A DNA stretch of 64,000 nucleotides from Anaerolineales bacterium (GTDB lineage Bacteria > Chloroflexota > Anaerolineae > Anaerolineales > UBA6663). The notes under the pieces are model-generated. The model had not been told where the DNA came from and ran no database searches. It worked only from the letters and a program-made list of their open reading frames with translations. The stretch is from positions 253,941 through 317,940 of the forward strand of contig JBGAGY010000006.1 of assembly GCA_044226485.1 (NCBI GenBank). The letters run 5' to 3'. Below, one piece after another: positions 1 through 60,774 of the stretch. The position numbers and the translations under genes were made by a program. The first letter of the stretch is position 1, and each line of letters begins with the position of its first letter.

Positions 1-1519
1 AGCCTGTCACGACAGTCTGACGGCGGCCGGCATCAACCTGTCCGCATACACCACAGCCGCCAGCGCCGCCGATGTGCGCGACATCGCTCGGGCGCTGCAC
101 TACAGTCGCGTTGACCTGTACGGCATCTCGTATGGCACGCGCCTTGCCATGACGATCATGCGCGACGATCCCACTCTTGTGCGCGCTGCAGTGCTCGACT
201 CGGCGTTGCCGCCGGAGGTCTTGCGCATCAATGAGACCGCCGCTAACGCGGAGCAGGCGCTCGACTCGCTCTTCGCAGACTGCGCGGCTGACCCGGTCTG
301 TGTCGCGACGTATCCCGATCTTGCCGAGACCTTCGATGCGCTCCTGGCTCAGGCCGCGGCCCAGCCCATCGTCATCCCCAGTGCTGACGCCCTCGGCGGC
401 GCTCAATCTTTGCAGTTGGATCCGGCCGGCGTCATCAACGCCGCGGTCTGGGGCCTGCACATCTCGGATTACATTCCCGCCCTGCCGTATGCGATCACGG
501 CCTTACAGCAAGGCGATGTGACGTCGCTGAACCCCGTGGCCGCGATCTTCTCATCGGCTGCGCCTGACATGAGCTCGGTCGTCAACCTGGCGATCACGTG
601 TCACGAACAGATCCTGCCAACGTCAGCCGATGCCTTGAACGCCTCATTCGATGCCCACCCGCGGACGGCGGCCTTCGGGCGCCTACATGTGTTCGGCGAT
701 GCGGCCACCGGCATCGCGGTCTGCCAGGCGTTGGGCCTCAGCGCGGCAGCCGAGGCGGAGCTGCGACCGCTCGAGACGGATCTGCCGAGCCTGATCCTGG
801 CTGGCGGACTCGATCCCACGACGCCGGCCGACTACGGTCGACAGGCGGCGCGCGAATCGAGCGAGAGCGCCTTCGTGCTGTGGCGAGAGGCCGGCCACGC
901 CGTCAGCGTTGGGCCCGACGCCCGCTGTGCGCAGTCGATCATCAGCCAGTTTCTGACCGACCCTGCCGCGCGGCTCGACACGACCTGTGTGGCAACAACC
1001 ACCCGGCGCGCGTTCCTGGCGCCTGGCGACCTGGCGGTGCAGGCGGCGCCGGCTGCCATGGCGGACACAGCTCCCCGCTCGTCCGATCCAGCAACCTCAG
1101 GCTCCTCTGCCGCGACCACCAGCGACGAACCTGCCCCGCAAGACGGTGGCGGGGGCAACAGCGGGGGCGACGACTCAGGTCTGGCGTCCGGCGAACCGTT
1201 CGTCGGACTGATGGGCGTTTCGATCGACCAGTGCCTGGTCTGTCTGAGTCACTTCCTGGGGCTCGAGCCCGGACAGCTGTATTACGAAACCGGCGTCGAG
1301 ACCGGCGGGCAGGTGTGGTTTCTCTATCGGGCCGACAACTACTATGGCCGGATCGTGGACATCGCTGTGGCCGCCGTGCCCGATGGGACGTTGTTCGTCC
1401 TGATGCTCACGGATCCTGGGAACCGTGACGCTTACTACGGCAGTGTGTACCTGCCGACGATCGACGAAGCGACGACTGCTTACTGGGGCGATCTGGAGCC
1501 GAGCGAGCCTGTCACGTAG
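1..1519 (+). CDS. alpha/beta-hydrolase fold serine hydrolase (S33/TAP-like peptidase family), 5'-truncated by window edge; carries a C-terminal low-complexity linker plus extra ~120-aa domain
   Basis: Track ORF 74..1519 stays open in-frame back to position 1, so the true start is outside the window. GISYG (GxSxG) nucleophile elbow. Ser/Asp/Gly-rich linker (SSDPATSGSSAATTSDEPAPQDGGGGNSGGDDSG) precedes the C-terminal domain. Confidence 0.6.
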   Translation, partial: ACHDSLTAAGINLSAYTTAASAADVRDIARALHYSRVDLYGISYGTRLAMTIMRDDPTLVRAAVLDSALPPEVLRINETAANAEQALDSLFADCAADPVCVATYPDLAETFDALLAQAAAQPIVIPSADALGGAQSLQLDPAGVINAAVWGLHISDYIPALPYAITALQQGDVTSLNPVAAIFSSAAPDMSSVVNLAITCHEQILPTSADALNASFDAHPRTAAFGRLHVFGDAATGIAVCQALGLSAAAEAELRPLETDLPSLILAGGLDPTTPADYGRQAARESSESAFVLWREAGHAVSVGPDARCAQSIISQFLTDPAARLDTTCVATTTRRAFLAPGDLAVQAAPAAMADTAPRSSDPATSGSSAATTSDEPAPQDGGGGNSGGDDSGLASGEPFVGLMGVSIDQCLVCLSHFLGLEPGQLYYETGVETGGQVWFLYRADNYYGRIVDIAVAAVPDGTLFVLMLTDPGNRDAYYGSVYLPTIDEATTAYWGDLEPSEPVT

Positions 1520-1543
1520 CGCAAGGGCGTGGCGCGTCGATCG

Positions 1544-2644
1544 TCAGCGCCCCAGCAGTTGTTCGCAGAGCCGGCGATTGCGCGCCATCTGCTGCTTGGC
1601 CACGGGCGCCAGGTCGCTGGCGAGCGCCAGCTGCGAGTAGCCCGTGCGAGCGGCCTCGAAGTGCTTGCGGCTGACCTCCAGCGCGACAAGGGCCTCGGAG
1701 TAGGCCTGCGCCGGCAGGTCGGGTCGCGCTGCGGCGGCGGCATCGTCGGCCGCGCGTTGGCCGAGCGTGATGTGGGCCTGCGCCCAGGTCAAGAGCGCCA
1801 GTGAGTTGCCCTCGCTCGGGATCGCCGTCAGGCTCGCTTCGGCGTGTTTCAGGGCGGCTCGCGCGTCACCGGCCTGAAGGGCAAGGCTCGACAAAAGCCG
1901 TTCGGTCAGGGCACGCTCCGTGACACTCAACCGAGTCCCAAAACTCGCGGCGCGCTCGAGATAGAGCTCGGCTTCACCCAGCTGGTTCTCGCGTAGCGCT
2001 AGAGATCCCAATTGGAACCAGAGATGGGCGTTGTCGGGCTCGCGTCGCAAGACGCCCTCGATGATGTCGCGGTCGCGTTGCGAGCGCGAGTCTCCACCCT
2101 GTACCGTCGCGCGCAGATAGCCGTAATGCGTCAACCTCAGGTCGCTGGGTTCGACGCGCCCCCCGGCGCGCTGGATCGAGGGCAGCACCTGCTCGTGGAT
2201 CGCCTGCTCGAATCGATACTCTTTGCGATTTCGAAAGAGCCTGAGCACAGGATGTTCGGTGAACGACACGGCCTCGCCGGGCGGCATCGGGCTGTGATAC
2301 AGCATGGCCCAGCCGTCGATGCGCGGCGACGCCGCGTCGGCGCCGTCCAGGAATGCGTGAAGCGCGCCACGGGTGTCCTCAGGGACTTCATCGTCGGCAT
2401 CCAGCACCAGGATCCAGTCGCCGGTTGCCGCGTCGAGGCTGACATTGCGGGCCTCGGCGAAGTCGTGGCGCCAGGCATGTTCGATCACTCGAGCGTCGAA
2501 CGAGCGCGCGATGGCGATGGTGTCGTCGGTCGAACCTGTGTCGACCACCACGACCTCGTCGGCCAGGCCCCTGGCGCTCGACAGGCAGCGCGCGAGGTCG
2601 GCCGACTCGTTCCTGGCGATCATGCAGACGGAGAGACGAGGCAT
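1544..2644 (-). CDS. family-2 glycosyltransferase (N-terminal GT-A domain) fused to C-terminal TPR repeats
   Basis: N-terminal CMIARNE...VVVVDTGSTDDT...ILVLDADDE, typical of GT2 (DxD). C-terminal half has TPR-like helical repeats. Overlaps the upstream paralog by 25 nt. Confidence 0.8.
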   Translation of the reverse strand: MPRLSVCMIARNESADLARCLSSARGLADEVVVVDTGSTDDTIAIARSFDARVIEHAWRHDFAEARNVSLDAATGDWILVLDADDEVPEDTRGALHAFLDGADAASPRIDGWAMLYHSPMPPGEAVSFTEHPVLRLFRNRKEYRFEQAIHEQVLPSIQRAGGRVEPSDLRLTHYGYLRATVQGGDSRSQRDRDIIEGVLRREPDNAHLWFQLGSLALRENQLGEAELYLERAASFGTRLSVTERALTERLLSSLALQAGDARAALKHAEASLTAIPSEGNSLALLTWAQAHITLGQRAADDAAAAARPDLPAQAYSEALVALEVSRKHFEAARTGYSQLALASDLAPVAKQQMARNRRLCEQLLGR

Positions 2645-4590
2645 GTCAGGGCTCTCACTACGGCGTCGATGAGATGCGGATGTCGGTCGTACTGATGGAC
2701 GATGGCAGGTGCATGCCCGTCGGCGGCCAGGACACGGCCGCCGTCGTCGGCGGTCAGGTCTTCGGGGAACATGGATCCAGCCGTCAGGAAGCGACCGCCG
2801 TTGGGCACCGCCACGGCGCCCGGCAGGCGACCCGAGTGGAGCAGGGCGTTGTGGGCGCCTTGATCGAGCCCGGCGAGACGTCCATCGGTCGAGTGTGCCA
2901 CGAGCTCACGCGACAGGCTGTCGAGGTAGCGGCCGATCGCGCCGGATGTGCCCAGCACCGTGCCCGAGCACGCGATCGGCAGATCGCTCATCTCCGCCCA
3001 GCGCTCACGCCCATACAACGAGCGCAGCCATTCGGCGTTGTTGGTCTCACAGCCGAGCGTGAAGAGCGGATCCTCGAGCGGCAACACAAGCTCGGCCTCG
3101 AGGGGCTCGGCGAATGGATCGCCCTGGAAGATCACGTCGCGGACGTCGGTCAGGAGCGCGCCATCAACGTCGGGATGGGCAGCCAGCCACTCCGCATACA
3201 GACGATAGCGCTCGACGTTGACCGACTGCGTCCCCGGCTTGAACGGGACGAGCGTTGCATGGCGCCGGATCTCGGCCTCGGTCTCGGCGTCGAGGTCCGC
3301 CCCGAAGATGACAAGGCGCGCACCCGGATTCCGACGCCCGATGTGCTGAGACCACGACTCGAAGAACGGCCACAGCCCGCCCCAGGGCAGGCCGCGCACA
3401 GCGCCGAGTGTCGCCGGCTGCATCAGGCGGACGGGCTGGCCGCGGCGCGCCGTGGCCGCGCATTCCGATGACAGCGTCAGCCCCGACGCGCGCGCCATCA
3501 GGCGGTCGCACAACCCCAGCTGGGCCCGGGCCACCTGAAAGCGGTCGCTCAGGTTGGCGCGGTGCTCGGCTCGCAAGCCCGGGTCGTCGATCAGGGCCTT
3601 GAAGCCGTCGACGGCTTCAGCCAGCGCCCCGCGCGCTGAGGGCAGCATGACGCGCTGCGCGGCCAGGGTCGCCTGGCCCTTGTGGGCGCGAAGCAGCACT
3701 TCGACAGTGCGTTGCGCGCCGATCTGAAGGGCGGCGTTGGCGCTGATCAGGTGCAGGGTGGGGCTCACTCGCCCGTTCTGCGGAAGCTCGAGGCCGAGTC
3801 GAGCGAAGTGACGGGCCTCAGGGAAGTCGGCGCGTCGGTCGGCGATCGCAGCCAGGGCGGCGAGGCTCTGCTGCAACACGTCGACGTTCACGCCGTCGAC
3901 GGACAGGTCCTGCCAGACATGCAGGAGCGTGCGCTGCGCCTCGTCGTCGAGGCCGAGCACCTGCTGCGTCAGGCCAAGCTTGATCCACGAATACGCATCG
4001 TCGGGGCGGCGTTCGGCTTCGGCGCGGAGCAACTCAAGGTTGCGCTGCTGTCGGCTGGCGCCCTGGGCCTGCTCGCTCAGATAACCGTAGTGCAAGATGC
4101 GCAAACCGCTCGGCGCGACAGTGCCGCCCGAGCGCTGAATGCTCGGCAGGATCTGAGTGTGAAGGTTGAGTTCGAAGCGGTGCTCCGGCCGATTGCGAAA
4201 CACGCGCACCTCGTCCGACTCGAGATGGTCGGTCAGGACGTCGGTCGGCGTGAAGTGATGCATGGTGAACAGCAGCCCGTCGACGGAGCAGGCCGACACG
4301 ACGTCGCGGAGGACGCGGGCGGTCTCGGGCGGCACTTCCTCATCGGCGTCGAGGTGAAGGATCCACTCGCCGTTGGCGGCGTCGAGCCCGACGTTGCGCG
4401 CCACTCCGAAGTCGTTCGTCCAGGCGTGCTCGATCACTCGAGCTCCGAGCGAGGTCGCGAGGGCGATTGTGTCGTCGGTCGAGCCCGTGTCGACCACGAC
4501 GATCTCGTCAACCACGCCGTTGATGCTCTGCAAACAGCGGCGCAGGTTAGCGGCTTCGTTCTTGACGATCAGGGTCGCCGTGAGAAGCAT
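2620..4590 (-). CDS. family-2 glycosyltransferase + TPR repeats + ~280-aa C-terminal domain of unknown function
   Basis: N-terminal LIVKNEAANL...VVVVDTGSTDDT...HLDADEE is paralogous to the downstream gene. Central TPR-like region. C-terminal region (GADLDAETE...GLDQGAHNALLHSG...) has no family I can name. Confidence 0.75.
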   Translation of the reverse strand: MLLTATLIVKNEAANLRRCLQSINGVVDEIVVVDTGSTDDTIALATSLGARVIEHAWTNDFGVARNVGLDAANGEWILHLDADEEVPPETARVLRDVVSACSVDGLLFTMHHFTPTDVLTDHLESDEVRVFRNRPEHRFELNLHTQILPSIQRSGGTVAPSGLRILHYGYLSEQAQGASRQQRNLELLRAEAERRPDDAYSWIKLGLTQQVLGLDDEAQRTLLHVWQDLSVDGVNVDVLQQSLAALAAIADRRADFPEARHFARLGLELPQNGRVSPTLHLISANAALQIGAQRTVEVLLRAHKGQATLAAQRVMLPSARGALAEAVDGFKALIDDPGLRAEHRANLSDRFQVARAQLGLCDRLMARASGLTLSSECAATARRGQPVRLMQPATLGAVRGLPWGGLWPFFESWSQHIGRRNPGARLVIFGADLDAETEAEIRRHATLVPFKPGTQSVNVERYRLYAEWLAAHPDVDGALLTDVRDVIFQGDPFAEPLEAELVLPLEDPLFTLGCETNNAEWLRSLYGRERWAEMSDLPIACSGTVLGTSGAIGRYLDSLSRELVAHSTDGRLAGLDQGAHNALLHSGRLPGAVAVPNGGRFLTAGSMFPEDLTADDGGRVLAADGHAPAIVHQYDRHPHLIDAVVRALTCLVSPSA

Positions 4591-4597
4591 AAGGGCC

Positions 4598-5446
4598 TCA
4601 TGTCAACGCGAGACGAAAGCCGAGGCCGGTGGATGTGTAAGACGGCAGCAGGCTTTCGCGCGCGGAGCAGCGAGCCAGCTTTCGGCTGTAATACCACGAG
4701 CCACCGCGCACCACGCGCTTGCCCTCGGCATGTGGATCTTCGCGGCCGTCGCCGGCCACGTACGGATACGGCCTCAAGATCGAGGCCGTCCACTCGTACA
4801 CGTTGCCGGCCATGTCCTGGACGCCGTCGGCGCTGACGCCGCCCGGGACATACATGTGGAGCGGTGAGGTGTCGCGCCGGTTGTTCTCGGCGGTGTTGCA
4901 GCGCCAGGCGTCGAAGTCGGCGCCCCAGGGGTAGATGCGGCCGTCGGTGCTGCGCGCCGCGCGCTCCCACTCGATCTCGGTCGCCAGGCGATAGGCCTGT
5001 CCGGTCTGCTGCTTCAGCCAGGCGCAGTAGGCGATGGCGTCGTGCCAGGAGACGTTGACGACCGGGTGCTCCTCGATACCCTTGGGGATGTCGAAGTTGA
5101 TCCAGTGCCGCGGCGCCTTGTAGCCGGTCGACCAGATGAAGGGCCGATACTCCAGGTTCGTCACAGGATGCTGGCCGATGCTGAACGCCGCCAGCTCGAC
5201 GGTGTGCGCCGGCTGCTCGGCCATGAACATGTTGCGGCTGTCCCACTCATTGGCCCAATCCTCGCGCAGGAGCAGATACTTGACCTGCTCGTCGGGCGTC
5301 CCGATCAGGCAATGCCCGGCAGGGATGTGGATCATGGGCGCCACACGCACCATCAATTTCTCGAGATCCTTCTCGGCGACGGTCTCGTGTTCTTCGGCGG
5401 CCCTCAGGTCCGCCGCGATCTGGGCCAGGCGATCGAGTTTGCTCAT
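4598..5446 (-). CDS. FGE-sulfatase (SUMF1/EgtB/PvdO) family domain protein lacking the FGE catalytic Cys pair
   Basis: Conserved FGE-family blocks (HPVVNVSWHDAIAYCAWL, RLATEIEWERAAR, YPWG, DMAGNVYEWT, RGGSWYYS). Only a single Cys sits after RGGSW, not CxPxYCxRYR. N-terminal coiled-coil-like segment. ATGA start/stop overlap with the upstream gene. Confidence 0.8.
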   Translation of the reverse strand: MSKLDRLAQIAADLRAAEEHETVAEKDLEKLMVRVAPMIHIPAGHCLIGTPDEQVKYLLLREDWANEWDSRNMFMAEQPAHTVELAAFSIGQHPVTNLEYRPFIWSTGYKAPRHWINFDIPKGIEEHPVVNVSWHDAIAYCAWLKQQTGQAYRLATEIEWERAARSTDGRIYPWGADFDAWRCNTAENNRRDTSPLHMYVPGGVSADGVQDMAGNVYEWTASILRPYPYVAGDGREDPHAEGKRVVRGGSWYYSRKLARCSARESLLPSYTSTGLGFRLALT

Positions 5447-6600
5447 GGCGCCATCCTTTCAGCTCGCTGTGCGGCGACGTCCACGGCCAGCGCGTTGGTC
5501 TGCGCCTGCTCGTGGATACGCCTGTAAACGTCAAGCATGTCCGGCACCATCGCGTCGGACGTGAAGCGGGCCGCCTGGGCGCGGTTCGCGCGCGCCAGCA
5601 GGCGTCGTTCGCTCAAGGTGTCGATGTGGGTCAGGATGGCTCGCTCCCAGGCATAGGCCGTGTTTTCGACGAGCGTGCCGAAGTGGCGCAGACCCGAATA
5701 GACGGATCCTTCTGAGGCGATCCAGGGCACACCGACCGCCAGGTACTCGAGCGCCTTGATCCAGCTGCGCCGTTCGTCGTAGCTGCCAGAGAGCGGCGCG
5801 AGGCCGATGTCGAGCCCGCGCAGTTGCGCTGGCCACTCGTTGTACGGCACCCAGGGTCGCAGGACCTTCTGCTCGTGGGAGACCTTCAGCGCGTCGAGCA
5901 GGCGGCCGTCGTTTCCGTGGATGACGATCTCGACATCCGGTCGGGCTCGGCAGACGCGCTGCAACGCCGTCAGCACGCCGCTTTCGGTGAAGGATTGCAG
6001 GTGCGACAGGCTGCCGCCCCAGCCGATGCGAATCTTGCCAGGCTCTGCGGTGGCGCTCAGTTCGCCGGTGTCGCGCGTCGGGCGCTCGTCGGCGCGGTAG
6101 ATGGCAGGGTCGAGCGCGTTCGGGAGGTGATAGGTCGGGAGCAGATGAGCCCAATCTTCAGCCAGGCGTTGCGACGGCATCGTGGCCGCATGGCAGAGCT
6201 TGAGGCCCCAGGCGAATTGCTCGATGGGCGTCGGCGACATCGTCTCGTAACCGCCGTCGGGGTGCCGCACCCAGCCCTTGTGCCAGTAGGCGTAGGCCGG
6301 GTTGCTGTCGGGCATTTGATCGTAGGCATCGTCGAACTCGGCGATGATCGTTTTGCCCTGCGCTTTCCAGTGAAGGATGGCGGCCAGGACGGGTCCGACC
6401 AGGTTGCGCTGGATGATCAGAACATCGGCCGCGCGACAGGCCGACATGGCCACTGGCGTGCCGCTCAGCCACTCGCGCAGATCGACGAGCGTCGCGTGGG
6501 CGAGGCCTGAGCGATGGATGGCGCGAGCAGGCACGGCGCAACGCCACTCGCTGCTGTTCCACTCGTGCGGATTGTCCGCCGTCACAAAGACGAGTTTCAT
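5443..6600 (-). CDS. GT-B-fold glycosyltransferase-like protein (GT1/GT4-like), paralog of the C-terminal domains of the two upstream genes; no TPR
   Basis: Start chosen at MKLVFVTADNPHEW (track ORF extends to 6747 through an Arg/Pro-rich, probably non-coding extension). C-terminal block LDIGLAPL...VGVPWIASE aligns with FDVLVQPL...GLPWLASP and FDVLMAPV...SLPFAASP of the paralogs. Start overlaps the upstream stop by 4 nt (ATGA). Confidence 0.65.
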   Translation of the reverse strand: MKLVFVTADNPHEWNSSEWRCAVPARAIHRSGLAHATLVDLREWLSGTPVAMSACRAADVLIIQRNLVGPVLAAILHWKAQGKTIIAEFDDAYDQMPDSNPAYAYWHKGWVRHPDGGYETMSPTPIEQFAWGLKLCHAATMPSQRLAEDWAHLLPTYHLPNALDPAIYRADERPTRDTGELSATAEPGKIRIGWGGSLSHLQSFTESGVLTALQRVCRARPDVEIVIHGNDGRLLDALKVSHEQKVLRPWVPYNEWPAQLRGLDIGLAPLSGSYDERRSWIKALEYLAVGVPWIASEGSVYSGLRHFGTLVENTAYAWERAILTHIDTLSERRLLARANRAQAARFTSDAMVPDMLDVYRRIHEQAQTNALAVDVAAQRAERMAP

Positions 6601-8327
6601 GACCGGGCGCCCCCCCAGGCGCGATGAGCGACGTCGAAGGCCGCCGGCACTGGCGTGCCGAGCGGGTTGAGGGCGAGTGGTGTCGGGCTTTCGTTCGTCA
6701 GCGCTTCGAGGCGGGCCAGCGGGAGCGCGCCCGTCGTCGTGCGCCACCAGGCATCTGCCAGCGCACCCGCTTCAAAGTCCTGGGCGGCGCGCCGGCCGTG
6801 TTCGGCCAGTTCGGCGCGCAACTGCGGCTGTTCGATCAGGCGCGTGAGCTGGGTGAACCACGCGTCCGAGTCGGTCGCCACGAGCCCCCCTGACCAGTTG
6901 CTCGAGGTCATGGTGGGCGAGGCCAGCCACGGCAGGCCCAGAGCTCCCGCTTCAATGAAGGGTTGGCCGCCGATGCTCTCGGCGTAAGCGCCAGGTCGCA
7001 GCGGCTGGACGAGGACGTCGAACTGCGAGAGCAGATACGGCCGATCGGATCCGCCAACGGGCGGAAGGTATAGTCTCTGGCTGTCCGGGACCGACTGCGC
7101 GAACTGCTGGTAGGCCAGCGGATCGCCCGCCACGACCAGGCGCGCGTCAGGGTGGGTCTTCAACACCCGCGACAGCTCGCGTCGAATGAGGGCCAGGTCG
7201 AGATGCGTGCCTGGGCCGGCCAGCCACCCGATGCTCAATTGGGCCTTCGGCTGATGCGGCAGATCCCAACCGCCTCCGGCACGCGCCCAACCGCCGGCGA
7301 TCACGCGGACGCGCTGCCCGGCCTCGCGCAGCACTTCGGCCATCGGCTCCGAAGGCGCGACGACCATGTCGGCCAGGCTCAGGGCCGTGATGAACGACTC
7401 GACCCGTTCGGGCGAACCCAGACCGACGCGATGGAAGGCCGGGTGCTCGCCGGGAAGACGGGCATAGTCGCAGGCCAGGCTGACGACGATGGCCACGCCC
7501 TCCGCTGCCGCCATGGCCAGACCCTGGGTCAGCTGCGCGTCGGCATGCGGCTCGTGGGCGATGATGACGTCGTAATCGCGCGTGCGCTCAGGCGCCAGCG
7601 CCAGGCACTCGTCGACCTCGGCGCCGCGCGCGCGCAGGGCCGCGGCGGGCACGCGTGTGAAACCCGAACCGGCCACCGGCGCGACGACCAGCGCACGCAA
7701 CGGACCCGCGCGGCGATGCGGTTCCGGGGCCGTCTCGGCCTGGCGTTGCAGTCGCAGGGAGATGAGCAACTGACCGAGCGCCTCGGCGACTTCGTGCTGG
7801 CCCTCGCGGCGAGCGGCGCGAATGTTGAGCTCGACCAGGGCGGGCAGCAATCGATCGATTTCAGTCAGACGTGAAGCGATCAGCGCAGCCGGTTCGCGCG
7901 AGTTGACGATTTCGTCGAGCAAGGCCGCGGCGCGGCGCACGTCGGCCTCGCGCACAAATGAAAGACCTTCGTCGACAGAACCCAGGTCGCGGCGCAGATT
8001 GGCCAGATCCTGCTCGACGAACGAGGCCGTCGTGGCGCTTCGGTTCGGCGGGGCCGTCTCGCCGTGTTCGGCGCGGATCAGGCTCAGCCGGTTGAGGACG
8101 TCGTGCCCCTCGGGCCGCAGGGCCTGGGCCGCTGCGTAGCGTTCTTCGGCCGCCGACAAACGCCCGGCCGCGAGTTCGGCATCGCCCAGCCAGAGCAGGG
8201 CTTCGACATCGTCCGGCGCGGCCTCGACGACGGTGCGAAGCAAATCGCGCGCGCTGTCGACCCGGCCGGCATGAAGCTCAGCACGGGCCTGGGCGCGGCG
8301 GAGGTGGAGGGCGGTGGGCAAAGGCAT
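6597..8327 (-). CDS. TPR-repeat protein fused to a GT-B-fold glycosyltransferase-like C-terminal domain (OGT/GT41- or GT4-like architecture)
   Basis: N-terminal TPR repeats (DVEALLWLGDAELAAGRLSAAEERYAAAQALRPEG). C-terminal IGWLAGPGTHLDLALIRRELSRVLKTHPDARLVVAGD...FDVLVQPLRPGAYAESIGGQPFIEAGALGLPWLAS resembles the GT-B donor-binding half. Start set at MPLPTAL (8327); the track ORF runs to 8474 as an alternative. Confidence 0.65.
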   Translation of the reverse strand: MPLPTALHLRRAQARAELHAGRVDSARDLLRTVVEAAPDDVEALLWLGDAELAAGRLSAAEERYAAAQALRPEGHDVLNRLSLIRAEHGETAPPNRSATTASFVEQDLANLRRDLGSVDEGLSFVREADVRRAAALLDEIVNSREPAALIASRLTEIDRLLPALVELNIRAARREGQHEVAEALGQLLISLRLQRQAETAPEPHRRAGPLRALVVAPVAGSGFTRVPAAALRARGAEVDECLALAPERTRDYDVIIAHEPHADAQLTQGLAMAAAEGVAIVVSLACDYARLPGEHPAFHRVGLGSPERVESFITALSLADMVVAPSEPMAEVLREAGQRVRVIAGGWARAGGGWDLPHQPKAQLSIGWLAGPGTHLDLALIRRELSRVLKTHPDARLVVAGDPLAYQQFAQSVPDSQRLYLPPVGGSDRPYLLSQFDVLVQPLRPGAYAESIGGQPFIEAGALGLPWLASPTMTSSNWSGGLVATDSDAWFTQLTRLIEQPQLRAELAEHGRRAAQDFEAGALADAWWRTTTGALPLARLEALTNESPTPLALNPLGTPVPAAFDVAHRAWGGARS

Positions 8328-8370
8328 GGCGTCGGCTAAGTCGGCAGAGCGCGATCGAAGGCGATGATCC

Positions 8371-10068
8371 TCATCGTGCTCGCGCGAGATCTCCGATGAG
8401 TTCGTGCCAGAAGGCCCCGACAGCCTCGGCCCGGCGAGACTGCGCCAGCTCGTGGCCAGCCCGTGCCAGCTCACCGCGCCAGGCGTTCTCGTCGACGAGG
8501 CGGTTCAACTGTGTGGTCCACTCGTCGGTCGTCGCGCAGAACACGCCGCCCGAGGCCCACTCAGCCAGCGCCGGCGCCGGGCTCGCGGCAAAGGGCAGGC
8601 TGCGCGCCCCGGCTTCCATGAGGCGCTGGTCACTCCCGATGCAGGCCCAGGCCTCGTGTCGCACCGGCGCCATGAGCACGTCAAAGTGCGCCAGTAAGTA
8701 CGGGTAGTCGTCGGGGCCGACCATCGGCAGGAAGAGCTTACGCGGCTCGGGCACGTCGTCGAAGAGCTGATAGGCCGTCGGCGAGCCCGCGATGGCCAGG
8801 TGGACATGGGGTCGTGACTTGATCACGGCGCAGATCGCGTCATGGATGCTGACGAGGTCCAGATCCTGGCTCGGATCGCCGACCCAGCCGAGCACCGTTC
8901 CGGCGTGGGCGGGCGCTGGCCGCGTCCACCACGCGTTGGCCGGCGACCACGCGCTCGGCGCCACGGCCGTCCGGCGGCAGCGCGAGGACAGCGCTGCAGC
9001 GAGATGCGTGCTCGCTGTCGTCACGAGGTCGGCCTGCGCGAGCACCAGTTCCAGGTTGCCCAGCGCTTCGCGGCTTGCCAGGTATGAGCGTCGCGGGTGA
9101 TCGGCGGGGAGGGCGAAGTCATCGCAGACCACGTCGACGATGATCTTTCGGCCGGCGGACTGCGCGCGCTTGAAGGTATGCATCAGCTCGCTCGAGAGAT
9201 GCGGGCGGCTGAAGACGAGCACGTCGAATTGATTGAGATCGTCGGCGTCGGGCGTGCGCGTGAGCTTGACGCGGTGTCGCCGGTCGGCGAGTGCATTGGC
9301 GGGGACGCCAAGGCGCGTGGCATCGCTCGATTCGCCGGTGCCGTAGAAAGCCACAGCAGCCGGGTGGGTCGGCGCCTGGTTTCCCGACGTTCCGTTGGGC
9401 GTGGACGTCGCGGGCGCCTGGCGCGCAGATGCCTTGAGCCGCGCGAGCTTGTCGCTCAGGTCGGGCCGCGCCAGCACGGCTTCTGGTTGAGCCGGAGCGA
9501 CGCGAGCCAGAGCGGTCTGGAACTCGGGCTCGGTCGGGCACAGCGAAACAGCCTGTCGATACAGCGCGCGCGCCGACTCGAGATCCTCAACCTCCTCGTA
9601 GCATGTGCCCAGGAGATGCAGGGCTTCGGCGTCGTCGGGCACTGAGCGAACGCGGCTCACCAGCAAGGCGACGCCTTCCTGAAGCCGATCCAGGTCAAGG
9701 TACAGTTGCGCCAGGTTGCGTGTAGCGGCGCCGTGTTCGGGATCCTGCTCGAGCGCACTCAAGAACGCCGACTCCGCGGCTTCTGCCTGGCCGTTGAGCG
9801 CGCAGGCAAAGCCGAGGTTGTTGTACATTTCGGCGTTGTTCGGCGCCAGCTGCACTGCGTGTTGGAACTCGCCGAGCGCGTCGGGAAGACGACCCAGGCG
9901 CAGAAGGCTGATCCCCAGGCCCGTGGCCACGCCGGCGTCATGCGGCGCCAGGATCCGGGCTTGAGCGAGATGCTGCTGAGCGGTGGCCCAGTCTCCAGCG
10001 CCGGCACTGGCGTCGGCACTGTTGAGCAAGGACTGTAGGTCGAAGGTTGCAGTGGTCATGGCAGGCAC
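8371..10068 (-). CDS. TPR-repeat protein fused to a GT-B-fold glycosyltransferase-like C-terminal domain, paralog of 6597..8327
   Basis: N-terminal ~200 aa of TPR repeats (AEMYNNLGFACALNGQAEAAESAFLSALEQDPEH...). C-terminal domain is colinear with the two downstream paralogs. First gene of the operon, with a 213-bp promoter region upstream. Confidence 0.7.
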   Translation of the reverse strand: MPAMTTATFDLQSLLNSADASAGAGDWATAQQHLAQARILAPHDAGVATGLGISLLRLGRLPDALGEFQHAVQLAPNNAEMYNNLGFACALNGQAEAAESAFLSALEQDPEHGAATRNLAQLYLDLDRLQEGVALLVSRVRSVPDDAEALHLLGTCYEEVEDLESARALYRQAVSLCPTEPEFQTALARVAPAQPEAVLARPDLSDKLARLKASARQAPATSTPNGTSGNQAPTHPAAVAFYGTGESSDATRLGVPANALADRRHRVKLTRTPDADDLNQFDVLVFSRPHLSSELMHTFKRAQSAGRKIIVDVVCDDFALPADHPRRSYLASREALGNLELVLAQADLVTTASTHLAAALSSRCRRTAVAPSAWSPANAWWTRPAPAHAGTVLGWVGDPSQDLDLVSIHDAICAVIKSRPHVHLAIAGSPTAYQLFDDVPEPRKLFLPMVGPDDYPYLLAHFDVLMAPVRHEAWACIGSDQRLMEAGARSLPFAASPAPALAEWASGGVFCATTDEWTTQLNRLVDENAWRGELARAGHELAQSRRAEAVGAFWHELIGDLARAR

Positions 10069-10221
10069 CCGGCCGGAGCGGCGTCCGGCGAAAGACCCGT
10101 GCCAGCCTCATGCGGCTCGGGCAGTTCTCACTCTACGGCCCGCGGCGGCCCATCGCCATAAACCACGAGTGAACGGGCACTAAACCAGGGGTGAATTGCG
10201 AGGACGGGCGCTGAAGTAGGG

Positions 10222-10258
10222 GGGAAAACGGACGGGCCAGGCATTTGCCTGGCCCGTC
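10222..10258 (-). terminator. intrinsic terminator for the FTR1/ABC transcription unit
   Basis: Perfect 12-bp stem gacgggccaggc/gcctggcccgtc with a 4-nt loop, followed on the minus strand by TTTTC. Sits directly 3' of the FTR1 stop. Confidence 0.6.
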
Positions 10259-10281
10259 GAGGAGACGTAAAGCGGGTTGGA

Positions 10282-11133
10282 TCAGGAGCCGGTCGCCAAC
10301 GCGGCCCGGTGCGTCTTTCGGGCGATGCGGCGATCGATCCACCAGCGCATGCCGAACAGCGTGGCCAACCAGTAGGCCACGTACACGATGACCGATTCGA
10401 TCGAGGGGCTGGCCTGATAGCCGAACACGATCGACGCGACCTGACCGACCGGGGACTCTTCAGACAACGCGCCGCTCAGATCCCACACATGCTCGCTGGC
10501 GGTGGGCAGCACGCCGGCCTCCTGGAACTCATGCACGCCGCGCGCCAGAAGCCCGGCCGCGAAGGCCAGCAGGAGCAGGCTGGTGACCGAGAAGAAAAGG
10601 CTCAGATTCAGACGGATCGTCGACGCGTAGATGAGCGCGCCAAGCACAGCGGCCAAAACTAACCCGATGGCGGCGCCGGCCAGCGCACCGACGGCATCGG
10701 TGGTGAACGCCGCGGCTGACAGCAGGAGCGCGGTCTCGACGCCCTCGCGGAACACCGCCAGGAACGCGACGGCCGCGAGGCCCCAGCCTGCGCCACCGCC
10801 GATGGCCGTCTGCATTTGGGTCTCGAGCGACGATTTCATGGTGCGCGCCTGAGTCCGCATCCACATGACCATCCAGGTCAGCACGACTACGGCCAGGACC
10901 ATGGCGGTGCCCTCGAAGATCGCTTCGGCCGGGCCTTCGAGTTCCGCGCCTGCGATCTGGATGCCGACCGCGAGCGCCACGCTCAGCGCGATCGCGCCGA
11001 ACACGCCGATCCAGATCTGTCGCCCATGAGCCGACTGCCCGGTCTTCTTCAAATAGCCGAGCATGATCCCGACGATCAAAGCCGCCTCGAGACCTTCACG
11101 GAGCGCGATCAACAAAGTCACCAGCATAGTCAT
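10282..11133 (-). CDS. FTR1/EfeU-family high-affinity iron permease
   Basis: Two REGLE/REGVE motifs (ALREGLEAAL, VFREGVETALL) within multi-pass hydrophobic segments. Confidence 0.8.
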   Translation of the reverse strand: MTMLVTLLIALREGLEAALIVGIMLGYLKKTGQSAHGRQIWIGVFGAIALSVALAVGIQIAGAELEGPAEAIFEGTAMVLAVVVLTWMVMWMRTQARTMKSSLETQMQTAIGGGAGWGLAAVAFLAVFREGVETALLLSAAAFTTDAVGALAGAAIGLVLAAVLGALIYASTIRLNLSLFFSVTSLLLLAFAAGLLARGVHEFQEAGVLPTASEHVWDLSGALSEESPVGQVASIVFGYQASPSIESVIVYVAYWLATLFGMRWWIDRRIARKTHRAALATGS

Positions 11134-11272
11134 CCCTCGTCAGACGAATGGATGCACTATACGGATGGAATCGCTCCAAATCAAGGTGAGGGCGTCAAGT
11201 TCGCTTTTGCGCGCGAGCGAGAACCAATTTGACGTCAGTCAAAAACGACCGACCCGACGAACCTGGTGCATC

Positions 11273-12130
11273 CTACAGATCGCGCCGCGAGAACCAGCGG
11301 ACGCCGATGAGCACGGCCACGACGGCATAACCGATGCCGTAGTAGACCATCAGCGGGCTGGGCGGGGATCCGAGGCCCGAGAGCGGGGTGACGCTGCCGA
11401 CAGTTTGAGTCAGCGCCGAACTCATCTCGAAGGCCGCGCGGCGCCAGATGGCCTCGGTCGGCACGACAAGACTCGAGAAGATGCCGATGTTGATGGCCGT
11501 CTGGTTCTGGAGGATGGCGCCGACCTGTTCGACCATGCTTCCGATGAACCCGAGGCCGTAGAGGCCGAAGATGACGCCGCCCGTGGCAAGCGCCGACAAC
11601 CGGCTCGAACACATCAGCGTGATCGACATGACGATCAGGCTGATCAGATAGATCAGCGGCAGCCCCTGAACGAGGCCCACGATGACGTAGTTCGCCTGCA
11701 GCCACATGCCGACGGCCACGCCCGCATCCATCGCCGCCTGGTACACCGCGAGCATGAGCGCGAAGCCCAGCCACTTGCCGGCCACGACGTGCCAGCGCGC
11801 GATCGGCTTGGTGACGATCGACTGAATGGCCCCCGACCCGATCTCGCCCGCCAACGTGTCGGCGGCGAGCAGTGCGCCGAGGGCCAGCGACAGGAAGTTG
11901 ATGGCATACATGCCGGCCAGCGAGAGGAAGTTCAAGATGCCGCGTTGAAAAACCTCTTGCTCAGGGCCGCCGGTCACATTGGGGCCGCGCCAATCGTTCA
12001 AGATGAAGTAGAGGGCGGCGTTGTAGATCAGGATGAAGGCAAGTCCGAGGACGAAGGCCGCAAGGGCGATCCTCCGGCGCACAGCCTCTCGAAACGTCAA
12101 CCCCGCGATGGTGAATATGGCGTTCAGCAT
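11273..12130 (-). CDS. ABC-2 type exporter permease
   Basis: Polytopic membrane protein immediately downstream of an ABC ATPase. Start set at MLNAIFTIAG, 22 codons inside the track ORF. Confidence 0.6.
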   Translation of the reverse strand: MLNAIFTIAGLTFREAVRRRIALAAFVLGLAFILIYNAALYFILNDWRGPNVTGGPEQEVFQRGILNFLSLAGMYAINFLSLALGALLAADTLAGEIGSGAIQSIVTKPIARWHVVAGKWLGFALMLAVYQAAMDAGVAVGMWLQANYVIVGLVQGLPLIYLISLIVMSITLMCSSRLSALATGGVIFGLYGLGFIGSMVEQVGAILQNQTAINIGIFSSLVVPTEAIWRRAAFEMSSALTQTVGSVTPLSGLGSPPSPLMVYYGIGYAVVAVLIGVRWFSRRDL

Positions 12131-12212
12131 GGGTGATTGGATTCTGTCATTCGTCTTTTTGCGACAGGCCATTGACCGTTCAATGACCGATCGCAAAGGA
12201 CCGATGACCCTG

Positions 12213-13106
12213 TCAAAGCACGCCTTCCGTGCCGACGGTGCGGATGAAGATCTCTTCGAGCGACAGTCGTTGCGGCGTCAAAGCATAGACGTCAACGCCT
12301 TGCGAAACCAGATAGCGTGCGATCTCAGGCAGCGCCGCTTCGCCGCCGGGCAGAACGAGCGTAGCCTGCTCACCGTCGGCGCGGATACCCGTGGCCCACG
12401 ACTCGAGCCCGGTCAACACGGCCGGCGTCAGGCCGCGGGCGCGCAGGGTGGCCTGCACCTCGCCCTGGGCCAGGTCATGCAGCGCTTCGGTGCGTATGAC
12501 CTCGCCATGTTGAATAAAGGCGACCCTGTCGCACGTGACTTCGATCTCGCCCAACAGATGGCTGTTCAGAAAGACTGTGGTGCCCTCGCCGCGCAGCTCG
12601 CGGATCATGTCGCGCACCAGGCGCCTGCCGACGGGGTCGAGCCCCGACGTCGGCTCGTCAAGGAAGACGAGATCCGGCTTGTTGATCAGAGCCTGGGCCA
12701 GCCCGACCCGCTGCAGCATGCCCTTCGAATACGTCCGCAGTTGTTTGCCTCGAAAGGGGCTCAACCCGACCCGATCGAGCAGATCGTCGATCCGGCGCTT
12801 CAGTGACGCGGCGTTCATGCCGTGCAGCTGACCATGAAGCGTCAGGAACTCCTGGGCGGTGAGCCAATCGTGGAAGCGAAAGTGCTCGGGCAGGAACCCG
12901 ACCCGGCCGCGAGTGGCCTGGTTGCCGAGGGGCATCCCCAACAGCCTTCCGCCTCCGCTCGTCGGCGCGACGAGGCCGAGCAGCATCTTGATCGATGTCG
13001 TCTTGCCGGCGCCGTTCGGGCCGAGGAAGCCGAACACTTCGGCCCGTTGAACCTCCAGGCTCAAACCGCGGACGGCCACCTGCGGCCCGAACTCCTTGCG
13101 CAGCAA
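12213..13106 (-). CDS. ABC transporter ATP-binding protein
   Basis: Walker A GPNGAGKTT, signature LSKGMLQRV, Walker B LVFLDEPTSGLD. The start appears to be TTG; the N-terminus may lie a few codons upstream. Confidence 0.85.
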   Translation of the reverse strand: MLRKEFGPQVAVRGLSLEVQRAEVFGFLGPNGAGKTTSIKMLLGLVAPTSGGGRLLGMPLGNQATRGRVGFLPEHFRFHDWLTAQEFLTLHGQLHGMNAASLKRRIDDLLDRVGLSPFRGKQLRTYSKGMLQRVGLAQALINKPDLVFLDEPTSGLDPVGRRLVRDMIRELRGEGTTVFLNSHLLGEIEVTCDRVAFIQHGEVIRTEALHDLAQGEVQATLRARGLTPAVLTGLESWATGIRADGEQATLVLPGGEAALPEIARYLVSQGVDVYALTPQRLSLEEIFIRTVGTEGVL

Positions 13107-13247: not shown

Positions 13248-14411
13248 TTATTTGAGGCTATTCGCCAGTGCCAACCCTGCGTCGGCGCCATTGGACCCGA
13301 TGACGGCGTAGAGGAAGCCATCCTTGGTCCAGACGATGGTGTACATGTCTGGCGACTTGGCCTTGTCGACGGCCGTGATCAGTTTGCCCGGCACGCCATC
13401 GACGACGACATCCTGCGAGGCTGCGGCCTGGCTCGGCAGCGGCACGACAAGGGTGGTGCCCCAGTCGAACTGGGCGGCCGTCTGACGGGCCTCGGCGTCG
13501 CTCATGCCCGTGATCTGGAGCGCGAGGACGGCGAGCTCAGCCGGGTCGAAAGGTTTGTCGCTCGTCACCGACGGGCTCGGCATCTGTTGCACGAGCACGC
13601 AATCGACGTTGGTCAGGTCGACCTCTTCGTCGCCACGCCGCTGAGTATCGAGACGCGGGCATGTGCCGTAGGCAGTCGACACGGCGTTCGGGATCTTGAC
13701 GGTCAGCGCCGCGCCATCAGCTGCGGTCGGGAAGGTGAGGTCCGGCCGGCCCAGGTCCGTCAGGATCGACTGCGCGCGCGCCGCGCTCAGGGTCATCACG
13801 AACTCGCTGCCACCGCGCACGACGTGCTGCACGAAGGATTGATCCGCCACACGCACGGTGAACCCGGCAAGTTCGGAGGCCCGGGCCGTATCGGTCGTGG
13901 TCTCGAGAAGATCGCTTTCGCTGCGGACCTCGACCGAGTCGGCGATGGCCTGCGAGGCGCGCCGCATCGAGGCCGAGTTGTTGTCGAAAGCTACGCTGTC
14001 GAACCGGTTGAAGTCGATGGGCAGGGTGGCCACCTGCTGGACCCGGAACAGCGCCAGGAACTGGCTGAACGCCTGTTGGACAGGCGTGAACGAGAAGGCC
14101 ACGGCGATCACAGCGACGCCAAGGCCTGTCAACAGAAGCGGTCGTAGCCGCGTGATAATCGAACGGAACATGTTGGTCTCCTTCATTTGATACTCGCGTT
14201 GAAAACGACGCCAGGCAGCGGCGGCTGGTAGCGGCGTCGACTCGGCGCTGGCCAGGGACCTCAGTTGTCCCTGGATCACCGAGCTCCGACCCACCACCTG
14301 CGCGAGCCGGGCACGACACTCGGCACATTGCTCGAGATGACGCGCTCCTTCAGCATCCAGTTGTCCATCCAGGTGAGCGCGCAAAGCGCCGTCGTCGAGG
14401 TGTGTCATCAT
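13248..14411 (-). CDS. anti-sigma factor (zf-HC2 type) with one transmembrane helix and a large extracytoplasmic domain
   Basis: HLEQCAECRARLAQ zinc-finger motif near the N-terminus, then a TM helix (LLLTGLGVAVIAVAF) and a ~280-aa periplasmic domain. ATGATG start overlaps the sigma-factor stop (ATGA). Confidence 0.7.
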   Translation of the reverse strand: MMTHLDDGALRAHLDGQLDAEGARHLEQCAECRARLAQVVGRSSVIQGQLRSLASAESTPLPAAAAWRRFQREYQMKETNMFRSIITRLRPLLLTGLGVAVIAVAFSFTPVQQAFSQFLALFRVQQVATLPIDFNRFDSVAFDNNSASMRRASQAIADSVEVRSESDLLETTTDTARASELAGFTVRVADQSFVQHVVRGGSEFVMTLSAARAQSILTDLGRPDLTFPTAADGAALTVKIPNAVSTAYGTCPRLDTQRRGDEEVDLTNVDCVLVQQMPSPSVTSDKPFDPAELAVLALQITGMSDAEARQTAAQFDWGTTLVVPLPSQAAASQDVVVDGVPGKLITAVDKAKSPDMYTIVWTKDGFLYAVIGSNGADAGLALANSLK

Positions 14412-14971
14412 CTCGTTCCCCCGTCTCGTTCTTCCTGTCGGCGCCATTGCGCCTCGAACGCGGCCTCGGCTCGAACCAGAAGTGTGCCCACCGAACCGGG
14501 CGCCACTTTCAAGGCGTCTGCGATCTCCTGATACGAATAGCCTGAGTGCCGCAGCATGAGCAATTGCCCGTCCCGCTCCGGCAGTGCCGCCAGCGCCGCT
14601 CGGACTCGATTGGCCTGATCGCGGTCGGCCGCGACGGCCTCGGGCGCAACGGCCTCAGCCTCGTCGGCCCAGGCCTGGCCGCCGGTCGTCTCGTAACCCT
14701 GGCGGCGCCTCCGCGCCCGCAGCGCGTTGAAGCCCAGGTTCATGGCCACCCGGTGCAGCCAACCGCCGACGCCGCTGCCGCGGTCTTGCGGTGGCCGGCG
14801 ATACAGCCTCCAAAACGCCTCGAGGGCCAGATCCTCGGCTTCATCGGAATCGCCGACCAGGCGGGTCAGGGTCGCATGGATGCGCGGCCACATCGCCAAA
14901 AAGACCCGTTCGAACGCGTCATCCGGGCCGTTTCCGTCAGCCAGGCCGGTTTGCTCCAAGTCGATGGCCAT
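14408..14971 (-). CDS. ECF (sigma-70 family, group 4) RNA polymerase sigma factor
   Basis: Region 2 (DLALEAFWRLYRR) and region 4 HTH (YSYQEIADALKVAPGSVGTLLVRAEAAF). Translationally coupled to the downstream anti-sigma gene. Confidence 0.85.
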   Translation of the reverse strand: MAIDLEQTGLADGNGPDDAFERVFLAMWPRIHATLTRLVGDSDEAEDLALEAFWRLYRRPPQDRGSGVGGWLHRVAMNLGFNALRARRRRQGYETTGGQAWADEAEAVAPEAVAADRDQANRVRAALAALPERDGQLLMLRHSGYSYQEIADALKVAPGSVGTLLVRAEAAFEAQWRRQEERDGGTR

Positions 14972-22329: not shown

Positions 22330-22406
22330 GGCGTGCTTCAGTATGTGCGGATGGGGGTGGCCAGGCCACGACTCGTCTGGCACGGTCGCTCAAACAACCA
22401 CTCGCA

Positions 22407-32998: not shown

Positions 32999-33307
32999 GC
33001 CTGCGACTGTTCCTCTCCATCGTGTAAACGCCCGGAATGGGCTGGAGTGGTGCACCGGCTCTCAGCCGCGATGGAACTGAGGCCGGTCCAATGATAGTAC
33101 GAATAACTGAGCCGCCGGTGTCGAGGTTCGGCTTGACCCACTCAGCCGCGCCCCAAAACGTTCGCCCGAGGCGCGGAACCGCGAAGGAGAGCGGATTGGT
33201 TTGTTTTTCCGGATCGGCGGTACACCTACTTAAAAGGAGCAGGCCCGGCGCCTGTGGCGGATCACATCCTTTTCGGTCCGCAGGCGGCGGTGCCGTACAA
33301 TATCACC

Positions 33308-38466: not shown

Positions 38467-38591
38467 AAGTCTGTAACTCGACGTCAGCGCCAGCCACATA
38501 AAGTTAGCAAACGCCAACTGTCCCCAGCTTGACCCTAAAGGGTAGCTTATGCAAACATGCTATACTAGAAAGTAGGACGGGGAGCGTTGTC

Positions 38592-60702: not shown

Positions 60703-60728
60703 TCGAAAAGTTTCGTGGCCAGGTGATG

Positions 60729-60774
60729 GACTACCCGACTACCTGACTACCTGACTACTCGACTACCTGACTAT
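60729..60774. repeat. 6 tandem copies of an 8-bp unit GACTACCY ending exactly at the start codon of the VWA gene
   Basis: gactaccc gactacct gactacct gactactc gactacct gactatat | ATG. No purine-rich SD is present. Confidence 0.8.

Follow-up and report, generated by a model that had tools for sequence, protein, structure and literature searches.

A 64,000-nucleotide stretch of DNA from an Anaerolineales bacterium (NCBI GenBank assembly GCA_044226485.1, contig JBGAGY010000006.1, positions 253,941 to 317,940 of the forward strand), hereafter called the window, contains a cluster of six genes within window positions 1544-10068. All six genes lie on the minus strand and were named G1 to G6 in transcription order. 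We consider it probable, with a rough probability of 0.75, that this cluster is a glycosylation island whose products attach O-linked sugars to flagellin in the cytoplasm of an Anaerolineae (Chloroflexota) bacterium. Flagellin is proposed as the target because the conserved neighbors of the cluster are flagellin and flagellar genes.

All six open reading frames were present at the positions given by an initial annotation of this DNA, which had been made from its sequence. G1 (8371-10068; 565 amino acid residues) was assigned by Pfam as a protein with an N-terminal TPR region and a GT-B glycosyltransferase domain. G2 (6597-8327; 576 residues; Pfam and AF2 model), which is also a TPR and GT-B glycosyltransferase, G3 (5443-6600; 385 residues; AF2 model and Foldseek), which is a stand-alone GT-B protein of GT4-like type, and G4 (4598-5446; 282 residues; Pfam family PF03781), which is a putatively cytoplasmic protein of the FGE-sulfatase fold, are the first, second, and third members of a core triad, respectively. 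G5 (2620-4590; 656 residues) and G6 (1544-2644; 366 residues) were assigned by Pfam as proteins with a GmaR-like GT2 domain, which is followed in G6 by TPR and in G5 first by a helical region and then by a C-terminal domain, the latter about 290 residues long. The domain calls of the initial annotation were confirmed by Pfam for GT-B, FGE-sulfatase, GT2, and the TPR of G1, G2, and G6, but Pfam found no TPR in G5. A hydropathy check revealed no transmembrane segments or signal-like N-termini in any of the six proteins, and all of them are predicted to be soluble.

Genomic neighborhood and link to flagellin

Two public assemblies of the window's own DNA (L001 and L002) had the same gene calls as those used here. 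L001 was 100% identical to window positions 1-13026 and continued past the left edge of the window, and it contained the N-terminus of a flagellin 4.2 kb beyond G6 on the same strand as the operon. In a relative with 94% identity (L006), hydrolase and MFS genes and then flagellin, FliD, and FlaG were found after the cluster. Another locus (L003), whose FGE-like protein is 70% identical, had all six genes, with flagellin directly after G6. In L004 and L005, with 65% and 57% identity, respectively, the triad of TPR-glycosyltransferase, GT-B protein, and FGE-like protein adjoined flagellin, FliD, FlaG, and FliS, which were followed by flgB/C, fliE, fliF, and fliG.

The interval between G6 and the flagellin gene of the window's own genome was occupied by a convergent gene encoding an 840-residue alpha/beta-hydrolase (TAP-like; window 1-1519, plus strand), followed by an MFS gene. 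This pair spans window positions 1-1519 and continues in L001:11508-15410. It was also present in L006 and absent in L003, and it looks like a lineage-specific insertion.

An alignment of the G3 family was scanned against one genome per species, which yielded 63 real loci, all from Anaerolineae/Chloroflexota, and the six proteins and the filament proteins were mapped onto these loci (one of them, L019, was corrected by hand). Cultured carriers included Thermanaerothrix daxensis, T. solaris, Leptolinea tardivitalis, Leptolinea sp. HRD-7, and Ornatilinea apprima. A TPR-glycosyltransferase gene was located directly upstream of G3 in 52 of 54 species loci, and an FGE-like gene directly downstream of G3 in 50 of 60. 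The association of the FGE-like gene with TPR-glycosyltransferases, which the initial annotation had seen in this single cluster, is thus conserved across species. A flagellin gene was found within 10 kb downstream in 25 of the 52 species loci that reach far enough, and at least one motility or chemotaxis gene occurred within 10 kb in 39 of the 63. In T. daxensis, the cluster is flanked by cheB-cheC-cheA on one side and by motA-motB on the other. In several genomes, it stands beside genes for chemotaxis proteins and two-component regulators and not beside flagellin.

Comparison of the loci revealed a conserved core of three genes (TPR-glycosyltransferase, GT-B, and FGE-like) and a variable shell of glycosyltransferases and methyltransferases. 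G1, G5, and G6 were found only in closer relatives, and several relatives carried a second TPR-glycosyltransferase gene ahead of the triad. In Leptolinea sp. HRD-7, flagellin was separated from the triad by 5 kb encoding an FkbM methyltransferase together with a pair of GT92-TPR proteins and a GT4 protein, and a TPR gene of 187 residues lay between G3 and G4. An extra gene encoding a methyltransferase, GT4, and GT2 protein of about 1070 residues was located between G1 and G2 in two relatives (L006:3882-7103 and L003:3817-7005) and was absent from the window and from L009. Its presence or absence suggests strain-level variation of the glycan. Flagellar glycosylation islands typically combine a constant core with a changing set of glycosyltransferases.

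The neighboring flagellins consist of about 280-420 residues, and their central regions are rich in Ser and Thr (17-43% Ser+Thr). No gene for a flippase, polymerase, exporter, or priming transferase was found in the cluster or in the annotated loci. The absence of these genes, the predicted solubility of the proteins, and the flagellin neighbors agree with the initial proposal that the enzymes are protein-directed glycosyltransferases rather than polysaccharide synthases. Decoration of an S-layer or exopolysaccharide, which had been offered as an example of the function, is unlikely because the conserved neighbors are flagellin genes.

Several results weigh against the assignment to flagellin. 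No flagellar genes were detected inside the 64-kb window by tblastn with flagellin, FliD, FlaG, FliS, FliF, and FliG. About half of the species loci had no flagellin within 10 kb, and 24 of the 63 had no motility gene within 10 kb, many of these contigs being short. Nucleotide-sugar genes, including those for pseudaminic or legionaminic acid, were found neither in the 64-kb window nor in the Pfam-annotated loci L001-L007. The sigma-28 consensus was absent upstream of G1, while the flagellin genes have one. In the literature searched, we found no experimental report of glycosylated flagellin in Chloroflexota.

The lack of flagellar genes in the window and of motility genes around 24 loci would also fit a cluster that acts on another target, be it some specific protein other than flagellin, an S-layer protein, or exopolysaccharide, and to which the motility neighbors are incidental. 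TPR-glycosyltransferases are generic protein-binding enzymes, and many enzymes of polysaccharide synthesis have GT4 and GT2 folds. This explanation is nevertheless unlikely, considering the flagellin gene in the same genome, the flagellin genes of the 25 loci and the che and mot flanks of others, the solubility of all the proteins together with the missing priming transferase, flippase, polymerase, and exporter, and the fact that the best solved match of the GT2 proteins is a flagellin glycosyltransferase.

Glycosyltransferases and the FGE-fold protein

G1 and G2 shared 32% identity over 532 residues (E 9e-49) and are paralogues, and G3 was homologous to the GT-B domain of G2 (E 4e-8). In Pfam searches, G1 gave strong matches to TPR together with Glyco_trans_1_4, and G2 matched TPR_16/TPR_19, Glyco_transf_4, and Glyco_trans_1_4, while the Glyco_trans_1_4 match of G3 was weak and below the threshold. 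NCBIfam returned only TPR families for the TPR and GT-B proteins. The AF2 model of G2 (pLDDT 77) had a helical repeat over residues 1-200, followed by a pair of Rossmann-like lobes spanning residues 210-535. The model of G3 (pLDDT 92) matched best, in Foldseek searches, retaining GT4 enzymes, namely MshA, PimA, GlgM, SdgB, BshA, and PglA, with E-values down to 2e-14. A G-W-x-G loop and Glu285 were invariant across the G1, G2, and G3 families, indicating that their donor-binding motifs are intact.

The initial annotation had compared the TPR and GT-B proteins with O-GlcNAc transferase (OGT) of family GT41. When the whole G2 model was used as the Foldseek query, SPINDLY (SPY) and bacterial and human OGT came out on top with E-values of about 1e-10, at TM-scores of 0.22-0.25 and root-mean-square deviations above 20 Å. 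The catalytic half of the model retrieved MshA. No Glyco_transf_41 match was obtained by Pfam for any of the cluster proteins, and GT4-type profiles were matched instead. Because the TM-scores are this low and the catalytic half retrieves MshA, the resemblance to GT41 is architectural only: the comparison holds for the order of the domains but not for the catalytic domain, which in G2 and G3 looks GT4-like in the models.

The G3 family comprised 691 cluster representatives at E<=1e-30 among 1.8 billion representatives searched, and the best 150 matches listed were all G3-like. Fusions of G3-type proteins with a C-terminal TPR, with GT2, and, in a singleton, with a radical-SAM/SPASM domain were seen among the matches listed. 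The singleton (P0253; 657 residues) comes from a 4.2-kb contig of a JGI metagenome; its best NCBIfam matches were SPASM families of a generic kind, and the fusion may be an artefact of gene calling. Anaerobic sulfatase maturases, which are functional analogues of FGE, are radical-SAM/SPASM enzymes. A search of plasmids with the G2 protein gave weak glycosyltransferase matches only and was uninformative.

The two remaining glycosyltransferases, G5 and G6, were 52% identical over 210 residues of the GT2 domain (E 5e-65) and are likewise paralogues, so that the paralogy of glycosyltransferases noted in the initial annotation was borne out for both pairs as well as for G3 and G2. Both matched Glycos_transf_2 (E 3.8e-20 for G5 and 2.2e-24 for G6), and the TPR match of G6 was weak. 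Their best solved match was GmaR (PDB chain 22ao_A; E 2.5e-26 and 5.7e-31, respectively), followed by SunS at about 1e-16 (2.5e-16 for G6). The GmaR matches were confined to residues 2-202, covering about 190-200 residues, and the GT2 domain of G5 occupies residues 1-190. The linker and antirepressor part of GmaR was left unmatched by G5 and G6, neither of which matched a solved structure beyond the glycosyltransferase domain. The DXD motif was intact in the GT2 domains, reading LDADEE in G5. The C-terminal domain of G5 looked alpha/beta and had no Pfam family even at E<=10. G5 was found only in close relatives (L003, L006, and L009-L012), and G5 and G6 are lineage-specific accessory glycosyltransferases belonging to the variable part of the island.

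The features of G5 and G6 bear on two further explanations. GmaR is bifunctional, acting as a glycosyltransferase and as an antirepressor of MogR (PMC9638930), and the TPR proteins of the cluster might by analogy be mainly regulators or chaperones of flagellar expression or assembly, with glycosyl transfer being secondary or lost. The extra C-terminal domain of G5 and the position of the cluster beside chemotaxis and two-component regulator genes in several genomes are compatible with such a role. We regard it as very unlikely, since none of the five glycosyltransferase domains has lost its donor-binding motifs, the similarity of G5 and G6 to GmaR is limited to its glycosyltransferase domain, and five glycosyltransferases, accompanied in relatives by methyltransferase and further glycosyltransferase genes, are typical of a glycan-building island.

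The other explanation starts from SunS, a peptide S-glycosyltransferase whose family was the top NCBIfam match of G5 and G6 and which was their second-best solved match. The cluster would then be a system of the glycocin type, related to ribosomally synthesized and post-translationally modified peptides, in which SunS-like GT2 and TPR proteins glycosylate a small secreted peptide and the FGE-like protein performs a thiol-related modification. However, the SunS family scores were 62.6 and 69.6 bits for G5 and G6, respectively, against a cut-off of 350, and the SunS matches were weaker than those to GmaR. No genes for a precursor peptide, a peptidase-ABC exporter, or a thiol-disulfide oxidoreductase were found in or beside the cluster, and most of the loci with the triad have neither G5 nor G6. 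G4, moreover, has neither the catalytic cysteines of FGE nor the iron-binding DinB domain of EgtB. A glycocin-type system is therefore extremely improbable.

G4 consists of a hydrophilic, helical-looking N-terminus and a single FGE-fold domain, which matched PF03781 over its full length at residues 36-280 (E 5.6e-47). Its best solved relatives were ToxD (7spq; E 1.6e-38) and CalU17 (E 1.1e-26). FGE structures matched at about 1e-20, and bona fide FGEs, EgtB, PvdO, and PorK were more distant than ToxD and CalU17. In the alignment with human FGE, the catalytic, copper-binding C336 and C341 correspond to Tyr253 and Ala258 of G4, respectively, with a deletion of three residues. The description of G4 as Cys-less in the initial annotation thus applies to these two catalytic positions, but four other cysteines are present in the protein, and the accompanying idea of a Cys- or thiol-modifying enzyme does not agree with the loss of the catalytic pair.

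Tyr253, Ala258, and a WRCN motif (residues 181-184) were invariant in 56 G4 orthologues. The combination of GG[SA]W[YF]Y and W[RK]CN occurred in 87 of the 94 single-domain top database matches and in none of 26 tandem-domain paralogues. By these motifs, G4 is assigned to a subfamily of its own, which the GGSWYY and WRCN sequences at the former active site mark. Among the nearest relatives of G4 that are not its orthologues, many are tandem FGE-like duplications and offer no informative fusions; four of them (P0016, P0023, P0094, and P0118; 450-493 residues) lack the GGSWYY and WRCN signature.

Three kinds of chemistry were considered for G4 and ruled out. Oxidation of cysteines or thiols in the manner of FGE is ruled out by the missing catalytic cysteines. 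FGE activity on flagellin is ruled out for the same reason and because the flagellins offer no substrate: the [CS]xPxR motif was found in none of 32 neighboring flagellins, and 30 of the 32 contain no Cys at all. Chemistry of the EgtB, OvoA, or SenA type is excluded because G4 has no DinB domain, which carries the iron-binding histidines, according to Pfam; G4 matched only positions 272-413 of the 413 positions of the EgtB model, with 101 bits against a cut-off of 360. No sulfatase gene was found in the 64-kb window.

The distance from the G3 stop codon to a possible G4 start was at most 30 nucleotides in 33 of 45 species. In the G3 tree, every deep branch had an FGE-like partner, whereas five or six lineages scattered over the tree had none, and in these G3 adjoins flagellin directly. 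By this distribution, G4 is ancestral to the module but dispensable. G4 keeps a highly conserved surface at the site where FGE holds an unfolded peptide, with no recognizable redox site; the groove there would be lined by Trp181, Arg182, Cys183, Tyr252, Tyr253, and Arg259.

Since this peptide-site surface is conserved, a redox site is missing, and the gene is tightly coupled to that of the TPR-less G3, we favor for G4 a role in recognition, of either the acceptor or the glycan, or another accessory role, similar to that of GlfM in Maf-2 systems. A glycan-modifying enzyme is possible but less likely. A stronger proposal is that G4 is functionally required in flagellin glycosylation in Anaerolineae, either as a specificity subunit that makes G3 act on flagellin by way of a repurposed peptide-binding groove of FGE, in what would be a new tripartite system, or as a cysteine-independent modifier of the glycan or of flagellin; we put this forward tentatively and consider it more doubtful than probable. 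Three observations count against G4 as an adaptor: G3 stands next to flagellin without G4 in about 10 species; a Rosetta-stone search of 1.8 billion representatives revealed no fusion of G3 with an FGE domain among the best 150 of the matching ones; and some G3 homologues carry or neighbor a TPR of their own.

Gene junctions, regulatory sequences, and other genes

The junctions were read directly from the DNA, and the tight packing of six minus-strand genes reported in the initial annotation was confirmed. G1 and G2 are separated by a gap of 43 nucleotides (8328-8370) and G4 and G5 by one of 7 nucleotides (4591-4597). G2 and G3 (6597-6600) and G3 and G4 (5443-5446) overlap by ATGA, and G5 and G6 overlap by 25 nucleotides (2620-2644). 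Third-position GC was 0.80-0.87 in the five open reading frames scored, G3 not being among them. For G1, the public gene calls place the start at ATG 10059 (562 residues) and not at GTG 10068 (565 residues). For G6, an alternative start at Met8 (ATG 2623-2621; 359 residues) would create a third ATGA overlap, with the stop codon of G5. The G6 homologue of L006 was called at 359 residues, in agreement with the Met8 start, and the first strand of the GT2 domain of G6 aligns from residue 5, which speaks for the longer form of 366 residues.

A conserved non-coding block on the minus strand upstream of G1 (10125-10205), found by aligning the upstream regions of seven relatives, is a candidate promoter or operator. 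It contains TTCAC...CCCGTTCAC...TGGTTTATGG, CGTAnAnT, and a -10-like TAGAGT at 10135-10130, and these motifs were invariant in the seven relatives, including L003, whose proteins are only 42-70% identical. Farther upstream, just after the FTR1 gene, a terminator-like hairpin was read on the minus strand at 10225-10258, with a 12-bp GC-rich stem, the loop AAAT, and a following CGTTTT. The hairpin (stem and loop at 10258-10231) marks off the glycosylation operon from the transporter genes upstream and is kept in L006, L009, L010, and L011. Its T-run is below the limit set by the terminator scan. Within the cluster, consensus scans for terminators and promoters gave no excess over shuffled sequence. 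It is plausible that G1 to G6 form one operon with its own promoter, because the junctions are tight, internal signals show no excess, and the hairpin and the conserved block lie upstream.

The 5' leader of the flagellin gene was located at L001:15531-15733 on the minus strand, 2.5-2.7 kb beyond window position 1. The upstream regions of flagellin genes were compared among L001, L003-L006, L010, L012, L013, L015, L022, and L032. In most of them, the leader starts about 195 nucleotides upstream of the ATG with a sigma-28-like GCCGATA, and in all of them it contains two conserved GGA-displaying hairpins, GGGGGAAGGACCCCC and GTAACACGGAGGTTAC, the latter extending across the Shine-Dalgarno sequence. 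The hairpins resemble sites bound by CsrA in the hag leader of Bacillus. A gene for CsrA itself was not identified; an open reading frame of 60 residues after fliS in L005 had no Pfam match and was not recognizably CsrA.

The rest of the window contained housekeeping and regulatory genes. An ECF-type sigma factor gene (window 14408-14971, minus strand) overlaps an open reading frame of 399 residues that has no Pfam family, the two together spanning 13248-14971, and the latter possibly encodes the anti-sigma factor of the former. Downstream of these two genes are a pair of ABC-2 transporter genes and the gene for the FTR1 permease. A HAD-family hydrolase fused to a DinB_2 domain (414 residues) is encoded at window 21139-22383 on the minus strand, SPFH/Band-7 proteins at 17381-18478 and 31004-33055, and a tyrosine recombinase at 38529-39479. 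At window 59734-62154 on the plus strand, the gene for a MoxR-like AAA ATPase is followed by that for a CoxE-like VWA protein, a common chaperone pair.

Proposed working and comparison with known systems

In the proposed scheme, five soluble glycosyltransferases and one FGE-fold accessory protein, probably expressed from a single operon, would decorate the Ser/Thr-rich central segment of flagellin in the cytoplasm before export. In the manner of FlmG, G2 and its paralogue G1 would bind flagellin with the N-terminal TPR and use the C-terminal GT-B domain for sugar transfer. G3, which belongs to the same GT-B family but has no TPR, would add or extend sugars, and G5 and G6 would add further ones. 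G4 would most likely be a non-redox partner that recognizes the unfolded flagellin segment or its glycan on behalf of G3, comparable to GlfM.

Flagellin glycosylation is well studied in Proteobacteria and Firmicutes, with the Maf, FlmG, GmaR, and Fgt enzymes. Under this scheme, a GT-B family that counts hundreds of cluster representatives would acquire a likely biological setting. So would a distinct subfamily within the FGE-sulfatase superfamily, which is very large and for the most part unassigned. Should G4 determine specificity or be a modifying enzyme of a new type, it would provide a new answer to how cytoplasmic O-glycosyltransferases choose their protein acceptors. If it is neither, the locus would be an ordinary flagellin glycosylation island.

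FlmG of Caulobacter crescentus and Brevundimonas subvibrioides is a protein of 596 residues whose TPR binds flagellin and whose GT-B domain selects the donor, which is pseudaminic or legionaminic acid supplied by dedicated genes (PMC7591256; bioRxiv 10.1101/2022.03.25.485807). Compared by size and domain order, G1 (565 residues) and G2 (576 residues) are similar soluble proteins with TPR followed by GT-B, and both systems are genetically tied to flagellar genes. By this analogy, G1 is a candidate flagellin-binding glycosyltransferase. Unlike in FlmG systems, donor genes for pseudaminic or legionaminic acid were not seen in the window or the annotated loci. Two TPR-glycosyltransferase paralogues occur here with the TPR-less paralogue G3 and an FGE-fold partner, an arrangement not described for FlmG systems. 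The host is a member of Chloroflexota, whereas FlmG hosts are Alphaproteobacteria.

In GmaR of Listeria monocytogenes, an N-terminal glycosyltransferase domain, which attaches GlcNAc to flagellin, is followed by a TPR domain, and the protein also acts as an antirepressor of MogR (PMC9638930). G5 and G6 have a homologous N-terminal GT2 domain, and TPR-like helices follow it in G6. They differ from GmaR in lacking a match to its linker and antirepressor part, in place of which G5 has its alpha/beta-looking C-terminal domain, and in being present as two lineage-specific accessory copies rather than in the conserved core.

The catalytic domain marks the difference from OGT and SPINDLY of family GT41. 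These enzymes act on protein acceptors, as is proposed for G1 and G2, and share with them TPR joined to GT-B, the TPR forming a superhelix in OGT and SPINDLY. Their GT41 catalytic domain was not found in the cluster proteins, and G2 and G3 matched profiles and structures of the GT4 type.

ToxD (7spq) and CalU17 (7ml6 and 6vqp), the closest solved relatives of G4, likewise consist of a single FGE domain from which the FGE cysteine pair is absent in the alignments. They come from small-molecule clusters for toxoflavin and calicheamicin, respectively, and not from protein-glycosylation loci, and ToxD does not share the WRCN and GGSWYY residues of G4 in the alignment. Both are cytoplasmic, and to our knowledge their biochemical functions are not settled. 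No paper linking an FGE-family protein to flagellin glycosylation was found in the literature searched, in keeping with the remark of the initial annotation that the pairing of FGE and glycosyltransferases is not recognized from described systems.

In concept, the closest parallel to the presumed role of G4 is found among Maf enzymes: Maf-2, which has no acceptor-binding domain, needs the small cis-encoded GlfM, while the TPR-bearing Maf-1 is self-sufficient (bioRxiv 10.1101/2023.12.03.569772). The TPR-bearing G2 beside the TPR-less G3 and its coupled G4 recalls this division, with G4 as the putative adaptor. The parts themselves are different, GlfM being a predicted four-helix bundle and not an FGE fold, and Maf being unrelated to the GT-B family of the cluster. 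The kind of pathway, which the initial annotation had taken to be undescribed, is therefore a known one, as the flagellin neighbors, the GT2 domains closest to GmaR, and the TPR and GT-B layout of FlmG indicate. What sets the cluster apart as a new variant among flagellin glycosylation systems is its make-up, in which an FGE-fold member is conserved and the GT-B family is specific to the phylum.

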